The position numbers and the translations under genes were made by a program. DNA of 49,850 nt from Minisyncoccota bacterium (lineage in GTDB: Bacteria > Patescibacteriota > Minisyncoccia > Phycocordibacterales > UBA9973), in contig DATJJU010000010.1 of assembly GCA_035491955.1 (NCBI GenBank), forward strand, positions 1 through 49,850, given 5' to 3'. The notes under the pieces were generated by a model. It was not told where the DNA came from. It saw only the letters and a list, made by a program, of their open reading frames with translations, and ran no database searches. Of this stretch, positions 8,601 through 49,850 are shown piece by piece. Position 1 is the first letter of the stretch, and every line of letters begins with the position of its first letter.

Positions 8601-9121
8601 CTCCGAGCCTATGATTTTTATTCATAAAAACGCAGAAAAACCGGCGGTATAGCCAAGTATTTTGCTTGTCTCCGCCGCAGGGCGGTTTTTTAGTCTAAAG
8701 ATCAAAGGTTCGTTTTTTGAAAAATACATCCTGTCCTCTAGTTGTGTCCATCTAATTGATGCGCACGGCAGGTAATAGAGAGACAGAATTTTTTGTTATT
8801 ACGGAGCGGTCCGAAATAATAAAGAAAGAGAACATCGTATCTATTTAAAGCGTAGATACGAATTATGATTTCTAGATTTCCTAATAGGAAATTAAGAGCA
8901 TATGGTGGATGCCTAGGTTCTACATGGCGATGAAAGACGCGAGAGGCGGCGATACGCTTCGGGGAGGTGCCTCTAACCTTCGATCCGGAGATTTCTGAAT
9001 GGGGAAACCCTATTGAGCAAACCTCAATAATCTACTCGCATAAGACGAGTGGAAGCGCACCCCGGGAAGTGAAACATCTCAGTACCGGGAGGAAAAGAAA
9101 AAAATGCAACGTAGTTGCGAT

Positions 9122-9163
<42 letters not shown>

Positions 9164-9387
9164 TCTGTCTTCGGATAGGGGTGTTGTAGGGCAGTAATGT
9201 CGTTTTACGAGAAGAGTTACAAAGTATATGTATAGAAAAAGTTGTTGGAAACCAACACCATAGTAGGTGATAGTCCTGTATTCGAAATATATATACCTCT
9301 TTTATTACTGTTCCTGAGTACTTCAAGACACGAATAGCTTGGAGGAATCCGCCAGAACTAACTGGTAAGGCTAAATACATTGTAGAA

Positions 9388-9428
<41 letters not shown>

Positions 9429-10006
9429 GTCCGATAGGACAGTGAAATAGTACTGAAACCATATGCTTACAAGGAGTCGGAGCGGGTATTTATATCCGTC
9501 ACGGCGTGCCTATTGAAGAATGAGCCAACGAGTTTATGTGTGCGGCTTGGCTAAGGGCCAAAGGTCCGGAGTCGCAGGGAAACCAAGTGTTAATAGCGCG
9601 TAATTGGTCGTACACATAAGACCCGAAGCCAGGTGAGCTACCCATGAGCAGGGTGAAGTGTTGAGAAATCAGCATGGAGGCCCGAACCGGTATGTCGTAC
9701 AACGCATTCGGATGACTTGTGGGTTGGAGTGAAAAGCTAATCGAACCTGGTAATAGCTGGTTCTCTCCGAAATAGCTTTAGGGTTAGCGTCAAATGATCC
9801 CATTGGGGGTAGAGCACTGGAAGGTTTCGACAGGGAGCAATCTCGCGACGCCTATCAAACTCCGAATACCAATTGGTTATAATTTGGCAGTTAGACTACG
9901 GGGGCTAAGCTCCGTTAGTCAAAAGGGAAACAGCCCAGATCTCTAAATAAGGTCCCAAAATATACACTCAGTGCATCTTAAGGAGGTAAGATTTCTTCGA
10001 CAATGC

Positions 10007-10038
<32 letters not shown>

Positions 10039-10835
10039 GAAAGCGTAACAGCTCACTCATCAAGAGATCTCGCGCCGCAGATAATCGGGGCTTAAGTGTA
10101 TTACCGAATTTGAGGGCTCATGCATTAGCATGAGCGGTAGGAGAGTATTCCACTCTAGCAGTGAAGCCAAAGACGTGAGTCATGGTGGAGCGTGTGGAAG
10201 TAAGAATGTTGGCACAAGTAACCGCAAGCAGGGTGAGATCCCCTGCCGCCGAAACACTAAGGTTTCCTGGGCAACGGTAATCGTCCCAGGGTTAGTCGGG
10301 TCCTAAGGCAATGGTGAAAACCGCAGTCGATGGACACAGGGTTAATATTCCCTGACTTCTGTAGTATTCGATGGAGTGACGAAGAGTAGTAGTATGAGCC
10401 GGTTATTGGATTCCGGTAGGCAACTCGCATGTGAAGGATAGGTAAATCCGTTCTTCTGACTTTAATGTCAACACCAGGGTTGTCTCGTGCAGAGGTACGC
10501 CGAAGCGAAGTCATGTGAGCACACTTCCGAGAAAAACTTCTAAGATTAGTACTATAGAACCCGTACCGTAAACCGACACAGGTAGTGAGGTCGAGTAGAC
10601 CAAGGCGAACGAGTAAGAGATCCCCAAGGAACTCGGCAAATAAGCAGCCGTAACTTCGGAATAAGGCTTCCCCTCAGCAATGGGGGGCGCAGCGAAAGTT
10701 TTCCTGGCAACTGTTTACCAAAAACACAGCTCCCTGCGAACTCGTAAGAGTATGTATAGGGGGTGACACCTGACCGATGCCAGAAGGTTAATTACGGGTG
10801 GTGCGATTATATCAAGCTGACTTGTACAAGCCCTG

Positions 10836-10870
<35 letters not shown>

Positions 10871-11124
10871 TCTACTATTGAAACTTATTTTCGATAGTAG
10901 AAGGACTGGGACTGTTATTCAGTCACGGTTGCATCAAAAAATGCAAAACAGTTTTTGTAAACAAATTAAAACAATAATCATTACATTTCTAGCTACCTAT
11001 CGCATAGTAATATGTGAATAGTCCAGACATGATCAACGAGAGACCAACGTCATGGGTCCCGGATCGTTCTTATAAATAAGAACGATCCGGGATTAAGATA
11101 GAGTCCTTCTGAGAGGAATAGAAG
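10871..11124 (+). mobile_element. 254-nt group I-like intron at 23S position L1931, ORF-less, apparently reduced
   Basis: Interrupts CCTAAGGT^AGCGAAATTCC; exon ends in U and intron ends in G; GAGAC and AAGATAGAGTCC (R/S-like), long P8-like hairpin, GAGA-loop P9. Confidence 0.8.
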
Positions 11125-11431
11125 AGCGAAATTCCTTGTCGGGTAAGTTCCGACGCGCACGAATGGTGTAATGACTGGGAAGCTGTCTCGGGGATTTGCT
11201 CGGTGAAAATACAGTACCGGTGAAGATGCCGGTTACCTGCAGTTAGACGAAAAGACCCCGGAAGCTTTACTATAGCTTGGTATTGGGTATGTTTGTGTAC
11301 TACGTAGCATAGGAAGGAGACTTTGAAGCGCCGATTTCGGTCCGCGTGGAGTCGTCAGTGAAATACTTCTTTGTACATGGGCATATTCTAACCCTGACGG
11401 AAAAAACGTTAGGGAACAGTGCCTGGTTGGT

Positions 11432-11472
<41 letters not shown>

Positions 11473-11725
11473 GTTCAAAGGTACGCTAGGCGCGAATGGA
11501 AACCGTGCCGATAGTGCAATGGCATAAGCGTGCTTGACTGTAAGACGGCCATGTCGAGCAGGTACGAAAGTAGAACATAGTGAACCGACAATTCGCATTA
11601 GATGCGGTTGAAGATTAACGGATAGAAGCTACTCCGGGGATAACAGGCTAGTTCCGCCTAAGAGTTCATATCGACGGCGGAGTTCGGCACCTCGATGTCG
11701 GCTCACCTTATCCCGGGGCTGGAGA

Positions 11726-11758
<33 letters not shown>

Positions 11759-11785
11759 AAGGTACGCGAGCTGGGTTCAGACCGT

Positions 11786-12298
11786 CCTGAAGCTGATCAT
11801 GTTTACATAATCGGCTGAAGGATCGTCTGAATCCCATGAGGAAAATTTTTTAATTATTTTTAATGAAATAAAAAATAATGTTAGGTCTTTTCGTCTAATA
11901 AAAGTAAAGCTTGCAAGTATTACCAAATATTTGTAAGAGAAAGATAGTATAAATGAAACCAATACTTATTACGGCGGTCTCATACAGCAATGTATGACGA
12001 CATGCTCAACTAATATCGGAGAAACCCGCCAACGGCGGGCAACACCGAGGGAAGTATGGTTTGTGAATTTCATAGAGGATTTATTCCTTAAAAAGTGTCT
12101 GTTAGCTCAATTTGGGTAGAGCAGTGGTTTTTGGTACCATTGATATGGGTTCGAGTCCTGTACAGGCAGCTTAGGCAAATTATTTAATTTGCCTCTTCTA
12201 TGAAATTCATAAACTAATACACCCGTAGAGACTGAATGTTGAGATTCCCTCTGGGAATAAGTTACAGTCCATTCCATACAGTAATGTGTGAAAAGAAG
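11786..12298 (+). mobile_element. 513-nt group I intron at 23S position L2593, no homing endonuclease, contains a tRNA
   Basis: Interrupts AGACCGT^CGTAAGACAGG; U before and terminal G. P3 CTCAAC/GTTGAG, P4-P5 TCGGAGAAACCCGCC..GGCGGGCAACACCGAG, P7 GACTG/CAGTC, P8, GTAA-loop P9. Confidence 0.93.
12096..12169 (+). tRNA. tRNA-Gln(UUG) nested in the L2593 intron
   Basis: Acceptor TGTCTGT/ACAGGCA plus G73; D-arm GCTC/GAGC; anticodon stem GTGGT/ACCAT with loop TT-TTG-GT; T-arm ATGGG-TTCGAGT-CCTGT; no encoded CCA. Confidence 0.85.
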
Positions 12299-12678
12299 CG
12301 TAAGACAGGTTGGTCTCCTATCTACTGCAGGCGTCGATGATTGAGGAAATTCGCTCCTAGTACGAGAGGACCGGAGTGAACGAACCTCTGGTGTACGGGC
12401 TCTAGCGCCAGCTGGACTGTCCGGTAGCTATGTTCGGAATGGATAACCACTGAAAGCATCTAAGTGGGAAGCCAGTTCCAAGATTAGTCATCATTTGAGG
12501 GCCGTGAGAGATGATCACGTTGATAGGCATTAAGTGGAAGCGTAGCAATGCGTTGAGCTGAGATGTACTAATTGCCCGACTCCTATTAGGAAATCTGGAA
12601 ATCATGCCCGTATTTAATACGGACCAGAAACAAAAAACAAAATTCAAAAAACGAAAATAAACAAGCTTGAACGCTTTG

Positions 12679-12916: not shown

Positions 12917-14740
12917 ATGAAAAAATATATCGGTGCTGTCATCCTTGTTGCTGCTTTAATAGGAGTAGGTCTTACTACGCACGTGTTTAAGGGCGGTCTT
13001 ACTGCTATGGTGTCGCCTATAAGCGGCACTTCTACCGGAGCCTCTGGCATCAGTAGTCCAGTAACGAATCCTACTACCACTCCAGGGTTGGCTGCGCCTG
13101 TATCACATCTGCCTGCAGGATGTATTTCTACTACTGGCTATAGTTCTACTACTGGTCAGCCATGTAGCGGAGTACCTTCTACTCCAGGAACCTCTCTAAC
13201 TATTAACAGCGTTACTCCTATCTCTGGCCATCTTTCAACACAAGTCGGAGTAGGCGCATTAGATGAAGCTGTTGGCGACCTTCGCATCATTACTGGTGCG
13301 GGCGGTTCCGCAAAGCTTACTGGTGTATATGTATCGTTTTACAATCGCGGAAACGGGAGTCCTGCTCTCATCAACTATCTTTCAGCTGTCTCTATATGGC
13401 TTAATGGCGTAGAGATTGGAACTCTTCCTGCTACATCGTTGACACAGTCCAATAATCAATATTCTGCCTTAATTCCAGTATCGTCAGCAGTTCTTAATGC
13501 TTCTACTACAAATGATCTTATTGTGGCTGTTTCTGCACTTCCTGTTGTTAATAGTGCAAACCTTGGCGCAACAGCTAATACATGGGCCTTCGAAATATCA
13601 GGGGTTAATTACTCTGGAACCTCTGGCGATACGTATACTATGAATATTCCATCAAATTCACGATTTGATGGAGGTAACCTTGTTTCTGGTACACTTCAAT
13701 CATCTTTTATTGTCTCCCCAGCAAGCGTTCCTGCGACACCAACGCTGACAATCAGCAGAGATGCTAATGACTATAGTGATCATGTTGTATCAGGTCAGAC
13801 AACTACTTCTACGCAAAATATTACTCTTGCTCTTATAGATATTGCTGCTCAAAAATCAGCTATCACTATGACAAGTCTTCCAGTGCATCTTGCTGTAACA
13901 AACCCTGGAACAGGCGGCACCAATGCCAGTGCTGTCATTAAAACACTGCGTCTTTACAATAGTGCAGGCACACTCATTGATTCTGAAAGCGTGCCGACAG
14001 GGACCAATCCTCAAACAGTCTTTAAGCAGCTTTCGACTACTATTTCAGCAGGATCAACACAAGTCTTTACTATCAAGGGAGACCTTAGTCCTGTGGATGG
14101 CACTACTGTTGCAGCAGGATCAACTGCTCGCATTAGTATCACAGCTGCAGATACTACTGCTATATCAGCATATGACGCAAATAATAATGTGGTGAGAGGA
14201 TCGGCATCACTGCTAGGTACGGTTGCTGGTAGTACTATTACCTTTTATGTGAATGGTATCCAAGTAACATCTACTGCTTCATCCGGCACAGCTACTGCTT
14301 CATCTGTAGGCGGTTCGCAGACACATAGCACACTTGGCTTCACTATTCCGTTTTCTGTGACGGCATTTGGCAAGATTGCGTATGTACCGTCTGTTGCAGT
14401 TGCTGCGACTGGGGTAAGTGCAGTACATGGTATTCAGTTCTGTGTTGATACTCCTAGTGGTTCATGTCAGGCTGTAGGAAAGGGTGTTATCACCTATGCA
14501 GGGAGCGGCAGTCTCGCTGTAGATGCTAACGGCAATTACACTATTCCTGCAGGTCAAACAAAGAATTTCGTTATTCAAATTACCTCTACTGCGAGTACTA
14601 CCGGATCATATCGGGCATCATTGATTAATGTAAATTGGAATAATACTGATTCTTCATCTGCCTACATGACTTCTCCTACTACATCGAATGCATTCAAGAC
14701 AAACTATGTATCAGCGAATGGCGGTACTCCACTTCTCTAA
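12917..14740 (+). CDS. Secreted Ser/Thr-rich beta-sandwich-repeat surface protein (S-layer/adhesin-like)
   Basis: Signal anchor, LPAGCISTTGYSSTTGQPC motif, repeated TI.AG.T..F.I motifs. Confidence 0.65.
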   Translation: MKKYIGAVILVAALIGVGLTTHVFKGGLTAMVSPISGTSTGASGISSPVTNPTTTPGLAAPVSHLPAGCISTTGYSSTTGQPCSGVPSTPGTSLTINSVTPISGHLSTQVGVGALDEAVGDLRIITGAGGSAKLTGVYVSFYNRGNGSPALINYLSAVSIWLNGVEIGTLPATSLTQSNNQYSALIPVSSAVLNASTTNDLIVAVSALPVVNSANLGATANTWAFEISGVNYSGTSGDTYTMNIPSNSRFDGGNLVSGTLQSSFIVSPASVPATPTLTISRDANDYSDHVVSGQTTTSTQNITLALIDIAAQKSAITMTSLPVHLAVTNPGTGGTNASAVIKTLRLYNSAGTLIDSESVPTGTNPQTVFKQLSTTISAGSTQVFTIKGDLSPVDGTTVAAGSTARISITAADTTAISAYDANNNVVRGSASLLGTVAGSTITFYVNGIQVTSTASSGTATASSVGGSQTHSTLGFTIPFSVTAFGKIAYVPSVAVAATGVSAVHGIQFCVDTPSGSCQAVGKGVITYAGSGSLAVDANGNYTIPAGQTKNFVIQITSTASTTGSYRASLINVNWNNTDSSSAYMTSPTTSNAFKTNYVSANGGTPLL

Positions 14741-18362: not shown

Positions 18363-19715
18363 ATGTTAAAGAAGAGAATTACTGCAATTGTTGTTTTATT
18401 AGTTGGTATTGCTCTAGGATGGATGGTCTTTCGCTCTCAAGAAGCGAATCCTCCACACTTCCTCGCTCGCTACCCATTCCGTCTCGGACTTGATTTGTCA
18501 GGCGGTAGTCATCTTATTTATGAGGCTGACGTTAGCCAGATTCCCGCCAGTCAGATTGATAACTCCATGGCATCCGTTCGTGATGTTATTGAACGTCGCG
18601 TGAATGCGTTCGGTGTTTCAGAGCCAGTGGTGCAGGTACAGAATGGCGGCTTTGGTGCAGTGAATACCCACCAGCTTTCTATTGAGTTGCCAGGCGTGAC
18701 CGATATTACCAAAGCGGAAGAACAGATCGGTCAGACTCCTTTCCTTGAATTCAAGGTTCAGTCAGACAAGCCAATGGCTCCACAGAATATCGTTATCGGT
18801 CCTGATGGCAAAGCAAGTACCAATATTGATGTCAGCAATCAGTTTGTTTCGACAGGCTTGAACGGCAAATATTTGAAACAAGCGCAGCTTGTCTTTGCTC
18901 AAGGCACCAATGAACCAACTGTCAGCCTTCAATTTGACTCAGAGGGTACAAAACTCTTCGCTCAGATCACCAAAGATAATATTGGCAAAGTTGTTGCTAT
19001 CTATCTCGATGGACAAGTTATCTCTGCCCCTGTCGTGCGCGATGCTATCACTAATGGTACTGCTGTTATTTCCGGCAGCTTCACCCCTGAACAAGCGCGT
19101 GAATTGGTGAGCAGTTTGAACTCCGGTGCTTTGCCTGTACCGATTCATCTCATCTCTACAGAAACTGTTGGCGCAACACTTGGCTCACAGGCAGTGCATG
19201 CAGGAGAAATGGCAGCTATCATCGGCTTCATTATTGTCGGACTCTTCCTCTTGGCATGGTATCGCTTACCTGGCTTGGTAGCAGTCATTGCATTGGCCCT
19301 CTATGTTGTTATTACTCTTGCTCTCTACAAGCTTATCCCTGTAACATTGTCTGCTGCAGGTATTGCAGGCTTCATTATCTCGATTGGTATGGCAGTGGAT
19401 GCCAATATCTTGATATTCGAACGAGCGCGTGAAGAGCGTATTCGCGGTCGTGCCATAGGAGAGGCCCTAAGCGCAGGCTTTCAGCGTGCGTGGACATCTA
19501 TCCGCGATGCAAACATTTCAAGTATCATCATTGCGCTGATCTTGTACTTCTTCGGCAGCTCATTGATCAAAGGCTTTGCATTGACCTTCGGTCTTGGTGT
19601 GCTTATCAGTCTTTTGTCTGCCATCACCATTACTCGTCTCTTCCTTCAGGCTTTGCCAACTCCAAAAGGCAACAAGTCTTTCATCTTTAGTAGCGGTTTT
19701 ACCACTAAAAAATAA
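18363..19715 (+). CDS. secD: Protein translocase subunit SecD
   Basis: LGLDLSGG, IERRVNAFGVSEP, GMAVDANILIFER. Confidence 0.97.
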   Translation: MLKKRITAIVVLLVGIALGWMVFRSQEANPPHFLARYPFRLGLDLSGGSHLIYEADVSQIPASQIDNSMASVRDVIERRVNAFGVSEPVVQVQNGGFGAVNTHQLSIELPGVTDITKAEEQIGQTPFLEFKVQSDKPMAPQNIVIGPDGKASTNIDVSNQFVSTGLNGKYLKQAQLVFAQGTNEPTVSLQFDSEGTKLFAQITKDNIGKVVAIYLDGQVISAPVVRDAITNGTAVISGSFTPEQARELVSSLNSGALPVPIHLISTETVGATLGSQAVHAGEMAAIIGFIIVGLFLLAWYRLPGLVAVIALALYVVITLALYKLIPVTLSAAGIAGFIISIGMAVDANILIFERAREERIRGRAIGEALSAGFQRAWTSIRDANISSIIIALILYFFGSSLIKGFALTFGLGVLISLLSAITITRLFLQALPTPKGNKSFIFSSGFTTKK

Positions 19716-19719
19716 GTAT

Positions 19720-20601
19720 ATGTTTGTCATTAAATACAAAACTCTTTTCATCAGCATCTCAGCATTCTTTGTTGCTATTGCTATTGTTTCTTTGATTGCT
19801 TTCGGTCTTCCGCTTGGCATCGACTTCAAGGGCGGTTCAGCATTGGAAGTACAATACTCCGGCGCTCGTCCTGCTATTCAAACTGTAAATACTGCTGTTG
19901 CAAATGCTGGCTTTGACCATACGTTGGTTCAGCCTATCGGCGATCAAGGATATCGTATTGAAACCGCTACACTTACCGATGCACAGCGTGCGCAATTGGT
20001 AACAGTCAGCGGTGGAACACAAACCAGCTTCACCTCTATCGGCCCTTCAGTTGGCACAGAGCTTAAGCACAAGGCTATTGCCTCGATTATCTTGGTGCTT
20101 ATAGCCATCATTCTTTTCGTAGCATATGCATTCCGCAAGGTTTCAAAGCCGGTTTCTTCATGGAAGTACGGTTTGGCTGTCATCATTGCCCTTATGCACG
20201 ACATTATTATTCCAACAGGTGTCTTTGCACTGCTCGGACACTTCATGGGTGCACAGGTGGATACACTATTCATCGTGGCATTGCTTACAACACTTGGTCT
20301 TTCTGTGGCAGACACTATTGTGGTATTCGATCGTATCCGTGAACACTTGAAGACTAAGGCAAATATGCCATTCGCCCAGTTGGTAGGGGAAAGTCTTTCC
20401 GAGACATTTGTTCGCTCAATCAATACTTCACTGGTTGTTCTTGTCGTTGTGCTTTCACTAGCAATCTTCGGCCCTGCAACAACCCAGCTCTTCGCTATCG
20501 TTCTCGCTGTCGGCATGTTCTTCGGAACCTACTCATCAATCTTTTTGGCATCTCCACTGCTTGTAGTAATGGAACAGTCTCAGAAAAAGAAAAACAAGTA
20601 A
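19720..20601 (+). CDS. secF: Protein translocase subunit SecF
   Basis: LGIDFKGG, IGPSVG.EL, DTIVVFDRIRE, GTYSSIFLASP; start Met 19720. Confidence 0.97.
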   Translation: MFVIKYKTLFISISAFFVAIAIVSLIAFGLPLGIDFKGGSALEVQYSGARPAIQTVNTAVANAGFDHTLVQPIGDQGYRIETATLTDAQRAQLVTVSGGTQTSFTSIGPSVGTELKHKAIASIILVLIAIILFVAYAFRKVSKPVSSWKYGLAVIIALMHDIIIPTGVFALLGHFMGAQVDTLFIVALLTTLGLSVADTIVVFDRIREHLKTKANMPFAQLVGESLSETFVRSINTSLVVLVVVLSLAIFGPATTQLFAIVLAVGMFFGTYSSIFLASPLLVVMEQSQKKKNK

Positions 20602-20606
20602 GCACG

Positions 20607-20890
20607 GCTTATTAAACCTATAGCACCCATGCTGCGTGTATGTTTCCAAAAGTCATCGGTAAACCTCTGATTTTGAAAACATACAGCTCCGCCCAGTTTT
20701 TTGTAGAAGTGTATCTGTAGGTGGTATTGGGGTTTAACGTTCTGTACTAAGAAACGTCCAACCCCAATACCACACAAGGTTTCCATTACCACTCTTAGCT
20801 GGGCGGAGCTACACGTTTTAAAATCCGCGGCTTGTCCAAGGACTTTTAAAACGTGTACGGGGCATGGGTGAGAGAGGTATATATTGAGGC
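20607..20890 (+). ncRNA. Unknown ~280-nt structured repeat element, copy 1
   Basis: Nested stems, G-U pairs favouring the + strand, homologous inverted copy at 49718-49850 with compensatory changes. Confidence 0.7.
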
Positions 20891-20901
20891 TTTCTGAAAT
20901 A

Positions 20902-20932
20902 AAAAAAGCCCCGGCGTAAGGCGGGGCTTTTT
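20902..20932. terminator. Bidirectional intrinsic terminator
   Basis: AAAAAAGCCCCG-GCGTAAGG-CGGGGCTTTTTT. Confidence 0.8.
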
Positions 20933-20936
20933 GTTT

Positions 20937-21128
20937 TTAATCTTCGTTAATTCCGAGCTCATTCTTAAGGTAGGCTCTTTGTTTACCTATAATGAATGTC
21001 AGTATTATGGAGACTAACATGGGCAGGATGGCCCAGATATTTTTTATGAATACCGGGCAAATAATAAAAACAGCGATACAAATAATACCTAAAAAGGTCA
21101 GTAAGTCGTATTTTTCTTCCGTTGTCAT
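20937..21128 (-). CDS. Small two-TM hypothetical protein
   Basis: 63 aa, two hydrophobic helices, ends at the bidirectional terminator. Confidence 0.5.
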   Translation of the reverse strand: MTTEEKYDLLTFLGIICIAVFIICPVFIKNIWAILPMLVSIILTFIIGKQRAYLKNELGINED

Positions 21129-43257: not shown

Positions 43258-43442
43258 AGTGGTCGCTCTCAATTTTGGGAGGGGTTGTTTGAAAATTGTA
43301 TACAAATGCATGTCCGTCTATTTTTCCAAACTAGACGGACAAAAATCTAAACATAAATTAACACCAATTATATTCCCAGTAGCAAAAGAGAAAGTCATTT
43401 TTCTTTTGCTTCAGTCTAGTCTGAGGCTTCGGCCGAAGACTT

Positions 43443-45243
<1,801 letters not shown>

Positions 45244-45429
45244 ATTGAGATAGTTCTGAGGCATTGCCGAAGAATTGATACGATCGATACTCGCAAGAGA
45301 AAGGTTTTGGTAACTGACTTAATAGTTACTCCTTGCCGCTAGGTTATGCGGCGAAAATCCTATTGTGTGTATCTATAGAGCACGGAATAGGTAGACTGGA
45401 GCAAAAGAAAGGTGGCATAATGGTGTCAC

Positions 45430-47538: not shown

Positions 47539-49272
47539 ATGTATTGGTTAAACGAAAACAGCAGAAAATTTTTATCAAAAGGATACCTGGTAGGGAATAT
47601 TACGGCTGAAGAGCGTATTCGAGAAATTGCAGAAATTGCAGAAAAGCATCTCAATAAGCCGGGCTTTGCCGACAAGTTCTATGACTATATGTCTCGCGGC
47701 TTCTATTCTCTCGCTTCTCCTATTTGGTCAAACTATGGGCTTGTACGCGGGCTTCCTATTAGCTGTTTTGGAAGCTATGTCGCTGATGATATGTCTCGCA
47801 TTCTCTATACTCACGCTGAAGTCGGCATGATGACAAAGTATGGCGGCGGAACATCTGTATTCTTTGGCGGATTGCGCCCTCGCGGTTCGATCATCAAAGA
47901 CAATGGACACTCTTCAGGTGCTGTGCACTTCATGGAGCTTTTCGATAATCTTATTAACATTGTTAGCCAGGGCTCAGTCCGTCGCGGACACGTCGCACCA
48001 TATCTTCCGCTTGAACATGGCGATATTGAAGAATTTTTAGATATTGGTAAGGAGGGTCATCCTATTCAAGAGTCTACGTATGCAGTGACTGTAGGGGATA
48101 AATGGCTGAAGGAAATGGTTGATGGCGATCAGGAAAAGCGAAAGATCTGGGCTAAGATAATTCAGCGTCGCACCGAAATTGGTTACCCATACATTCTTTT
48201 CAGCGACAATGTGAACAATAATACTGTCGATGTCTACAAGGACAAGAATATGAAAATTTACGGAAGCAATCTCTGTTCTGAAATCTGCTTGCCAAGCGCG
48301 GACGACATTTCTTTTGTCTGCTGCCTTTCTTCTATAAATATGCGCCATTATCATGAATGGAAAGACACCGATGCTGTTGAAACTCTTACAATGTTCCTCG
48401 ATACTGTTATTACAGAATTCGTAGAACGCCTCGAAAGCCTCCGTGATAGTGAAGATCCTCAAAAACAGTCTGCATTTGAATTCATGAAGCGTGCTCATAA
48501 GTTCGCCAAAGAGCATCGCGCGCTCGGTCTTGGCGTATTGGGCTGGCATACGTTCCTTCAGGAAAACAATATTCCATTTGATAGTGTAGAGGCCTCCTTG
48601 CTGAATGAAGAGATCTTTTCTGTTATCAAAGACCGCGCATACAAGGCATCAGAAGACATGGCAAAAGAATATGGCGAGCCAGAAATCTTGAAAGGATACG
48701 GTCGCCGCAACACCACTCTCTTGGCAGTTGCTCCTACTACTTCTTCAGCATTCATCTTGGGCCAGGTCTCTCAGAGTATCGAACCGTTGATGTCTAATGC
48801 ATTTGTGAAGGATGTAGACAAGATGAAAGTCACTATCAAGAATCCAACACTTGAAGCATTGCTCCAAGAAAAAGGAATGAATACTACTGATACTTGGAAC
48901 AGTATTCGCGACAATGACGGCTCAGTGCAGCATCTCGACGGTCTGACAGAACATGAAAAGCGCGTATTCCGAACATTCAGTGAAATAGATCAGCGTACGA
49001 TCATTGATCAAGCTGCAACGCGCCAGAAATATATCGACCAAGCTCAGTCGCTGAATATCATGATAGACCCGACTATGCCGGTAAAAGATTTGAACGCACT
49101 GTATCTGTATGCATGGGAGAAGGGAATCAAGACTCTCTACTATCAGCACAGTATGAATGCGGCTCAGCAGTTCGGTAGAAAGAAGCTTCAAGAAACAGAA
49201 TCTAAGAAGCCAAAAGAAATGAAAGTGGTAGTGGCTTCCGAAGAAAACATTTGCGTCAGCTGCGAAGCATAA
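47539..49272 (+). CDS. nrdA: Ribonucleotide reductase alpha subunit without ATP cone
   Basis: PISCF, GGGTS, SNLCSEI, VCCL, APT.SS, KTLYY, C-terminal CVSCEA. Confidence 0.95.
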   Translation: MYWLNENSRKFLSKGYLVGNITAEERIREIAEIAEKHLNKPGFADKFYDYMSRGFYSLASPIWSNYGLVRGLPISCFGSYVADDMSRILYTHAEVGMMTKYGGGTSVFFGGLRPRGSIIKDNGHSSGAVHFMELFDNLINIVSQGSVRRGHVAPYLPLEHGDIEEFLDIGKEGHPIQESTYAVTVGDKWLKEMVDGDQEKRKIWAKIIQRRTEIGYPYILFSDNVNNNTVDVYKDKNMKIYGSNLCSEICLPSADDISFVCCLSSINMRHYHEWKDTDAVETLTMFLDTVITEFVERLESLRDSEDPQKQSAFEFMKRAHKFAKEHRALGLGVLGWHTFLQENNIPFDSVEASLLNEEIFSVIKDRAYKASEDMAKEYGEPEILKGYGRRNTTLLAVAPTTSSAFILGQVSQSIEPLMSNAFVKDVDKMKVTIKNPTLEALLQEKGMNTTDTWNSIRDNDGSVQHLDGLTEHEKRVFRTFSEIDQRTIIDQAATRQKYIDQAQSLNIMIDPTMPVKDLNALYLYAWEKGIKTLYYQHSMNAAQQFGRKKLQETESKKPKEMKVVVASEENICVSCEA

Positions 49273-49275
49273 AAA

Positions 49276-49304
49276 GAAAAAACACCCTCTCGGGTGTTTT
49301 TTTC
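49276..49304. terminator. Bidirectional terminator between nrdA and rnpB
   Basis: AAAAAACACCC-TCTC-GGGTGTTTTTT. Confidence 0.8.
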
Positions 49305-49307
49305 ATA

Positions 49308-49656
49308 TTGTTGTACTCGTAAGCCGAATTCTGTTCTAGTGATCATTTATCTGTGATGGATGTTACCACCCACCTATAGCAGCACTCCCAATAAAGGGCA
49401 CGGCCTTGCACACAGGTAAGGATTTAGCCGTTTCATTCTAGGACTTCTCTTACCCCTTTATATTCCTAGCGCTAACCTGCTGAACTAATCCGAGTTTTTC
49501 AAGGGTACAGGTTATCCAACTTCTTTCGTTGTTGGCCGTTTCTGTTCGCACCTCGTATCTTGCAATAGACGGGCGTTACCCGCTACCCATACGAATTAAA
49601 TCGTTGTGTGTTCGGACTTTCCTCTGCATTGCTGCAGCGATCATTCGGTACAACAA
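49308..49656 (-). ncRNA. rnpB: RNase P RNA
   Basis: Minus strand GAGGAAAGTCCGAAC and ACAGAATTCGGCTTA; P1 TTGTTGTAC/GTACAACAA; TATACT just upstream. Confidence 0.95.
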
Positions 49657-49717
49657 CGCAAGTATACGCATATTTAAAAAGAGCACAAGTAAGAACAAAT
49701 TAGCACAGTAAAGGGCC

Positions 49718-49850
49718 ATATATACCTCTCTCACCCATGCTCCATAGACAATTTAAAAGTCCTTGGACAAGCCGCGGATTTTAAATTGTCTAGTTCCGCC
49801 CAGCTTTGAGTGGTAGTGCAGACCCTTTGTGGTGTTGGGGTTTGACGTTT
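49718..49850 (-). repeat. Unknown structured repeat element, copy 2 (3' half only, truncated by window end)
   Basis: Ungapped reverse-complement match to 20752-20884, about 18 differences in 133 nt by manual count. Confidence 0.85.

Follow-up and report, generated by a model that had tools for sequence, protein, structure and literature searches.

The element at positions 20594 to 20897 of the window belongs, with a probability that we put at roughly two in three, to a previously undescribed family of non-coding, non-autonomous, MITE/REPIN-like palindromic intergenic repeats carried by a few species of one genus. The window, 49,850 nucleotides of DNA, is the whole of contig C10 of a 17-contig, 674,185-base genome (G000 below) that is 96.6% complete. 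A first-pass annotation of this stretch had offered two proposals, an undescribed ncRNA with a 6S-like central bubble and a non-autonomous mobile element under structural selection. Much of the second stands: the element is absent from three orthologous loci of relatives, two of its copies are identical over their assembled stretches, mosaic copies occur and the hairpins covary. Mobility itself is what we infer from these observations, as neither a mobilising gene nor a target-site duplication was found.

Alignment of both strands of all copies showed that the conserved unit is a half-unit of ~135 nt (76% mean column identity). From the outside inwards it consists of an outer box ending ..TATATACCT, a GCACCCAYGCT box, a hairpin, a CTCCGCCCAGCT box, a stretch of ~22 nt and a GGTGGTATTGGGG box, so that the hairpin is flanked by two invariant sequence boxes. 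There are two half types with different hairpin loops. Throughout G000 the two halves are inverted, head to head, and facing inverted halves are on their own sufficient to give a basal stem, a 'four-way junction', a 14-bp stem, a 22x23 'bubble' and an apical stem. The parts of the complete copy in the middle of the window (copy A), its neighbours, and the truncated copy at the end of the window are as follows.

19594 to 20601, plus strand: secF open frame; its final codons and stop, AAC AAG TAA, are at or beside the element end.
20594 to 20897, plus strand: full element, copy A, two inverted half-units (from the copy alignment, empty congener sites and the fold).
20608 to 20743, plus strand: left half-unit, a 143.3-bit match of R1, our covariance model of the half-unit; it holds a terminal box, a GCACCCATGCT box, the hairpin, a CTCCGCCCAG box, the 'bubble' strand and a GGTGGTATTGGGG box.
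20625 to 20633 with 20862 to 20870: basal stem, CACCCATGC with GCATGGGTG.
20637 to 20685, plus strand: left lateral hairpin (fold and covariation).
20685 to 20810, plus strand: central rod of 14-bp stem, ~22x23-nt internal loop and apical stem-loop (fold).
20685 to 20698 with 20797 to 20810: 14-bp stem.
20721 to 20734 with 20760 to 20773: apical stem.
20751 to 20886, minus strand: right half-unit, inverted and carrying the other hairpin-loop type (R1 match, 145.2 bits).
20810 to 20857, plus strand: right lateral hairpin (fold; three compensatory pairs against the copy at 49718-49850).
20903 to 20932, both strands: bidirectional intrinsic terminator, outside the element and ancestral to the locus.
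49304 to 49656, minus strand: rnpB (RNase P RNA), neighbour of copy F (RF00010, 98.9 bits, E 5.6e-31).
49700 to 49850, minus strand: copy F, the outer 141-150 nt of an element cut by the contig end (R1 138.7 bits; identical to the end of C7).

Every stem that the first-pass annotation had named within 20607-20890 was found in the sequence, as were the bidirectional terminator behind the element and the imperfect palindrome of the whole (69% minus-strand self-match over 269 nt, the terminal inverted repeats being the inverted homologous halves). Its limits of 20607 and 20890 were too narrow; copy similarity and empty sites place them at ~20594 and ~20897, with ends of approximately TAAG[AC]AC ... 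GT[GT]CTTA that are not fixable to the base. The element is non-coding, since indels between copies shift any reading frame. Because copy A precedes the ancestral terminator and follows the secF stop codon, it must be transcribed, passively, as secF 3'-UTR, and the copy in the def-fmt pair is probably co-transcribed as well.

BLAST and the covariance model together found five copies in the 674 kb, where only two had been counted at first: three complete and two split across contig ends. R1 alone gives 10 half-unit matches in G000, and the copies are 77-88% identical to copy A. Beside copy A (C10:20594-20897) the complete ones are copy B (C12:~49070-49380, 78% identical to A) and copy C (C9:~13955-14260, 77% identical to A), the latter a mosaic of both half types. 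Half-copies D and E, at the two ends of C13, are left-type halves; F and G, at the ends of C10 and C7, are right-type halves. Contig-end overlaps are exact over 141 nt (C13 start with C13 end, C7 end with C10 end), a pattern typical of assembly at k=141 halting at a repeat present twice. By synteny, def (C7 end) goes with fmt (C13 end) and rnpB (C10 end) with the secA side (C13 start), and it is this pairing that brings the total to five elements. The middles of the two split copies were not assembled; over the assembled stretches the two are identical, except that their outer ~20 nt differ. The contexts are a 3'-UTR (secF), the inside of the def-fmt operon and the space between the divergent rnpB and secA regions, and orientation relative to neighbouring genes varies. 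The first-pass annotation had correctly described the copy at 49718-49850 on the minus strand as 86% identical, with three compensatory changes in a hairpin stem around an unchanged loop, and had correctly given rnpB (49304-49656, minus strand) and secF as neighbours. The rnpB score of 98.9 bits lies below the Rfam gathering score of 100, so that default annotation would miss the gene; congeners score 105-109 bits.

These copies have practical consequences. The element causes assemblies to break, 4 of the 34 contig ends of G000 falling within it. It also alters where genes end: the final codons and stops of secF and def are either supplied by it or adjoin it. Other joins of the genome (C1-C8, C3-C11) show overlaps of ~26 nt, and the JGI contig L220 joins the end of C9 to the end of C17, so parts of the bin could be scaffolded. 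The rRNA genes of the window are unlinked, the 16S gene lying 31 kb downstream of 23S-5S, and the lengths of both large matches indicate insertions: 3709 nt for a 2925-position model in 23S (8882-12590) and 1804 nt for 1533 positions in 16S (43442-45245). A tRNA-Gln(ttg) at 12096-12170, called by ARAGORN and Rfam, lies within the span of the 23S match.

The unassembled middles allow another reading of the split copies, in which the half-units terminate an autonomous insertion sequence, the bin lacks the body of that sequence, and the complete copies are internal-deletion derivatives. Identity over 141 nt at each end would fit, as would the last 16 nt before the break, which differ from the short copies, and the JGI contig L214, which breaks at the same place. 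However, a k=141 assembler breaks in this way at any two-copy repeat, and as little as some tens of bases may be missing. Six transposase families are missing or sporadic (at most one in five) in the carrier genomes, neither 13 metagenome stretches nor viral contigs yielded a longer relative, and the tail of the broken copies loosely resembles, by eye only, the start of a hairpin module found in a relative (module X in L213, below). We regard this reading as improbable.

Orthologous sites were compared at three loci. At the secF site the element is absent in 10/10 close congeners (SecF 70-84% identical), where the stop codon is directly followed by a terminator-like hairpin (7/10) or by lemA (3/10); in G000 the element sits between the stop and what is apparently the same terminator. 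After def, fmt was found in 26 of 29 congener loci, with a spacer of at most 34 nt in 12 of those 26 (~3 nt in G048). The remaining def-fmt spacers hold mostly unrelated genes or other modules, and that of G018 holds a diverged copy in the opposite orientation. Between rnpB and secA the element is absent in all four congeners that gave a match, G018 and G008 holding other inserts; rnpB falls inside the secA locus in three congeners. A possible GAAA duplication, in A-rich context, was seen at the secF site and none at def-fmt or rnpB-secA, with element ends that are not fixed to the base. These comparisons, together with the mosaic copy, show that the family was gained at particular intergenic sites and that its units were exchanged between copies, at the level of DNA. 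The rnpB-secA interval also holds a small open frame rich in lysine and alanine (AAKKKAAKKKVAKK...; G000:C13:~395-520, with orthologues in L225-L228), whose upstream region is conserved; all five genomes examined have it.

The family has a narrow distribution. R1 matched 4 of the 50 other genomes of the genus (G048 with three matches, G062 and G006 with four each, G018 with one), so that 5 of 51 carry it, G000 included. Five further close relatives gave nothing at E<=0.1, and neither did 150 genomes that represent 131 other genera of the order. When the element was compared by plain BLAST with 24 congeners and with 16 genomes of the order, no match came up, a sensitivity miss because G018 and G006, both in that set, carry diverged units according to R1. 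A pattern scan of the genomes of 185,579 species returned at least 115 stretches, mostly chance matches in high-G+C genomes; among the matches listed two were true (L055 and L114), both recorded as Candidatus Nomurabacteria and matching G018 and G048. A tighter pattern run on a metagenome collection gave 13 stretches, of which R1 confirmed three, two from the window's own organism and one from a new relative (L213). Viral contigs, phage records and plasmid records yielded 0 matches. The one DNA sequencing run listed for the stretch, with a small share of it, matched unrelated pieces outside the element only, and no RNA run was listed for the locus. A literature search, judged on its search results alone, turned up no description of such repeats in this lineage.

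Among the carriers the half-unit behaves as a module. Doublets are found in G000, G048 and G018; the units of G062 and G006 are solo. In G048, where the second half has diverged strongly, the basal stem and both lateral hairpins are kept and the 14-bp stem is lost; the central rod is not kept in any of the three G048 elements that we folded. One G006 unit has lost its hairpin by deletion between two GCACCCA boxes. In L213 a half-unit is joined to a different conserved hairpin module, here called module X (core GTTTCCGGGTT..GGAATAGC..GGTCCTCAAC), and to a matching right end. Module X uses the same intergenic hot spots in congeners: it stands alone in the def-fmt spacer of G022 (L135:~1990-2150) and of G001 (L133, at a contig end), forms an inverted pair in the rnpB-secA spacer of G018 (L225), and occurs also in L169 (G006). 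Rfam gave 0 matches for the relatives' elements and for module X. Six element motifs, searched elsewhere in the genome as antisense targets or extra copies, produced one-mismatch chance matches only.

Covariation separates the local hairpins from the rest of the structure. Over 23 half-units, hairpin cells are paired in 95.0% of cases against 63.4% in shuffles (0/500 as high), double changes occur in 13 of 15 hairpin pairs, and 103 double-changed cells compare with 33 expected; sliding the partner by 1-3 columns lowers hairpin pairing to 39-58%. Fitting that alignment to R1 biases it towards the structure. In 10 halves aligned independently with MAFFT and analysed by RNAalifold, 9 stem pairs had double changes. 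The three complete copies show double changes in 19 of 94 predicted pairs, of which the two lateral hairpins hold 15, a small local hairpin holds 2 and the remaining 2 are beside the apical loop, while compensatory change was seen in 0/19 basal pairs and 0/13 pairs of the 14-bp stem. Covariation had been claimed at the outset, and in the hairpins it proved both real and strong. This distribution argues that the local hairpin is the selected feature; the long-range stems are an uninformative consequence of inverted homologous halves. A within-half pairing proposed by RNAalifold, CCCAUGCU with GGUAUUGGG, was dropped for its near lack of covariation. Compensatory change in a DNA palindrome can also arise by template switching without selection, and the hairpin covariation cannot tell single-stranded DNA from RNA.

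Nor does either strand stand out. RNA folding gave the plus strand of copy A -130.0 kcal/mol (z -11.5, 0/200 shuffles as stable) in a four-way shape, and the minus strand -125.1 kcal/mol (z -12.3). In the three full copies the gap between the two strands is 0.1-5.7 kcal/mol and the G-U counts are 5/4, 9/7 and 13/12, which lends no support to the idea that G-U pairs favour the plus strand. Each lateral hairpin has a conserved G.T wobble, placed on the strand that runs from the outside to the inside of its half, a pattern symmetric between halves and hence one that favours no single transcript.

These results bear on a reading of the element as a structured ncRNA that stands alone, acts in trans and has several gene copies, such as a 6S-like imitation of open promoter DNA. 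In favour of it are the very stable fold, the central stem, internal loop and stem, and the bubble strands conserved within G000; it would also be new, being absent from Rfam. At gathering scores copy A has no Rfam match, and at E<=10 the stretch 20500-21000 gave sub-threshold matches over the following terminator only, none of them to 6S. That null stands against a 6S-like RNA, and so does most of what precedes: a promoter scan found no promoter-like site within or upstream of copy A, the strands fold equally well, orientation varies among unrelated contexts, the long-range stems do not covary, the rod is lost in G048 and absent from solo units, and the family reaches 5 of 51 genomes of the genus and 0/150 elsewhere in the order. 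A dedicated ncRNA, the first proposal of the first-pass annotation, is not supported, and we hold it to be the least probable of the readings considered.

A role in cis deserves somewhat more weight. The unit might act as an RNA element on mRNAs, as a 3'-end stabiliser, processing site or terminator module, perhaps a repeat later put to use, with its hairpin selected as RNA. Copy A is necessarily in a transcript, another copy lies inside the def-fmt pair, and the hairpins covary strongly. In G062 and G006 the hairpins have a terminator-like look (A-run, short G+C stem, T-run), a long open frame reads towards each of 7/7 solo units and ends within 8 nt of its start, and the downstream neighbour is convergent in 4/4 scorable cases, within 251 nt. 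But tail-to-tail spacers are also the least harmful landing sites, which makes the location non-discriminating, and a terminator scan called none inside copy A. One G000 copy lies between the divergently read rnpB and secA-side genes, the wobbles lie on different strands in the three full G000 copies so that no single transcript reads all hairpins well, and orthologous genes of congeners do without the element. As the main explanation we find this unlikely; a secondary role at mRNA 3' ends, from the location of the solo units and their terminator-like hairpins, is plausible. A rule that solo units follow a co-directional gene (7/7) was dropped, as in tail-to-tail spacers either orientation gives the same outcome.

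For a mobile repeat the natural question is which enzyme might move it, and the first-pass annotation had recommended looking for a co-occurring transposase or RAYT gene. Six DDE/TnpB families and Y1_Tnp were counted in the five carrier genomes, whose bins are 87-98% complete. TnpB (PF07282), DDE_3 (PF13358), DDE_Tnp_IS1595 (PF12762) and Transposase_mut (PF00872) were found in 0/5, DDE_Tnp_1 (PF01609) and rve (PF00665) in 1/5 each, and Y1_Tnp (PF01797) in 5/5. Y1 genes are common to all carriers, but no Y1 gene adjoins any unit and the RAYT is flanked by a different REP. G000 has four Y1 genes, one a typical RAYT (C3:50470-51015) and three COG1943-type paralogues (C15:21164-21874, C15:61486-62109 and C16:33212-33850). 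The RAYT type occurs in 6/51 genomes, four of the five carriers and two non-carriers, and each of the six orthologues is flanked by its own short REP of GGGGTC.GACCCC type, which varies between species and is unrelated to the element; R1 gave no match at the RAYT loci. Of the 51 genomes, 19-20 have COG1943-type paralogues: all five carriers and 14-15 genomes that lack the element. The genomes are related and so are not independent observations, and this distribution is compatible with a role, though far from specific.

The REP-RAYT pair is a classic one. It spans G000:C3:50386-51030 (L190:1407-2057) and comprises a 182-aa HUH/Y1 gene with a palindrome on both sides. The short palindrome has 6 copies in G000, among them further ones at C1:15459, C1:24753, C4:6806 and C13:12800, and RAYT orthologues in G066, G062, G008, G048 and G006 each have their own variant. 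A supposed likeness of the element's apical stem to the REP stem next to the RAYT gene came down to a few bases and was discarded. A third palindromic family, a ~45-nt nested palindrome (CCCATAGGTCTTTCCTATGG...), has 5 copies (C3:16453, C11:5995, C13:4983, C14:9194 and C3 start/C11 end), the last of which breaks the assembly between C3 and C11.

Taken as a mobile, palindromic repeat, the element would work as follows. Two ~135-nt units lie head to head and create the long-range stems, the hairpin being conserved in shape but not in sequence. The local hairpins would be the feature under selection, most plausibly because they are recognised in single-stranded DNA by a trans-acting enzyme. Our leading guess for that enzyme, a tentative one, is one of the HUH/Y1 transposase-like proteins. 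We infer an HUH, single-stranded-DNA mechanism over a DDE one since local hairpins are selected, no duplication was seen, Y1 is the only one of the counted transposase families common to the carriers, and singlets and doublets coexist, as they do in REP/REPIN systems. It is possible that the transposase lies in the unassembled middles of the split copies or outside the bin. Copy A would have landed between the secF stop and the terminator, and any effect of it at the RNA level, where it is carried passively as 3'-UTR, would be secondary.

A bolder version makes the ~135-nt unit a functional module, its hairpin between invariant boxes being read, as single-stranded DNA or RNA, by the orphan COG1943-type HUH/Y1 proteins of many CPR genomes; between convergent genes such units could in addition act as 3'-end modules. 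We think this doubtful, but were it true it would amount to a REPIN-like partnership of host and element with a new architecture, and would supply a substrate for widespread genes. The genomes of this lineage are dense, at ~0.6-0.8 Mb, yet G000 retains no fewer than three palindromic repeat families together with four HUH/Y1 genes. More generally, an inverted pair of repeat units can mimic a large structured RNA, complete with extreme folding z-scores, a 'junction' and compensatory changes, and this should serve as a warning for ncRNA discovery in metagenome bins.

Several known systems share features with the element. Like a MITE it is ~300 nt long and non-coding, has five copies and terminal inverted repeats, and shows presence and absence at orthologous sites; unlike a MITE it has no autonomous partner with the same ends among the six families in the five carriers. 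What it shares with 6S RNA (RF00013), in the G000 copies, is a large internal loop set between two long stems; it differs in having no model match, being multi-copy, strand-neutral and not conserved in the genus, and losing the rod in relatives. The IS200/IS605-derived PATEs have subterminal hairpins and are not known to make a target duplication, and a mechanism through single-stranded DNA would suit the element too. However, PATEs are not known to have long terminal inverted repeats, TnpB is found in 0/5 carriers, and the Y1 proteins here are RAYT- or COG1943-like rather than an IS200 TnpA adjoining the element.

Nearer at hand are the palindromic repeats of proteobacteria and the REP family. 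REPs and REPINs are hairpin units occurring as singlets and inverted doublets, intergenic, multi-copy, not known to make target duplications and kept in shape by compensatory change. Our element likewise has singlets and inverted doublets, covarying hairpins and Y1 genes in every carrier. It departs from them in the size of its units (~135 nt, against 20-40 nt for REPs), in the absence of a conserved GTAG 5' of the hairpin, and in its relation to the RAYT, which in this genome is flanked by another, short REP while no Y1 gene adjoins an element unit. ERIC/IRU and Correia (NEMIS) elements of proteobacteria are non-coding, co-transcribed imperfect palindromes of 100-300 nt in transcribed intergenic regions, with modular size variants. 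Compared by description, the element is likewise an imperfect palindrome, modular, non-coding and co-transcribed; it differs in its host, a 0.67-Mb genome of another phylum-level lineage, in carrying its covariation in local hairpins and not in the whole palindrome, and, from Correia, in showing none of the TA duplication that those elements make. Since the RAYT flanks belong to a different repeat, as would not be expected of a REPIN, and neither the partner nor the duplication of a MITE was found, we file the element as a new family of this general kind rather than as a member of a named one. On these comparisons, it appears to work most like the palindromic repeats of the REPIN, ERIC and Correia type.
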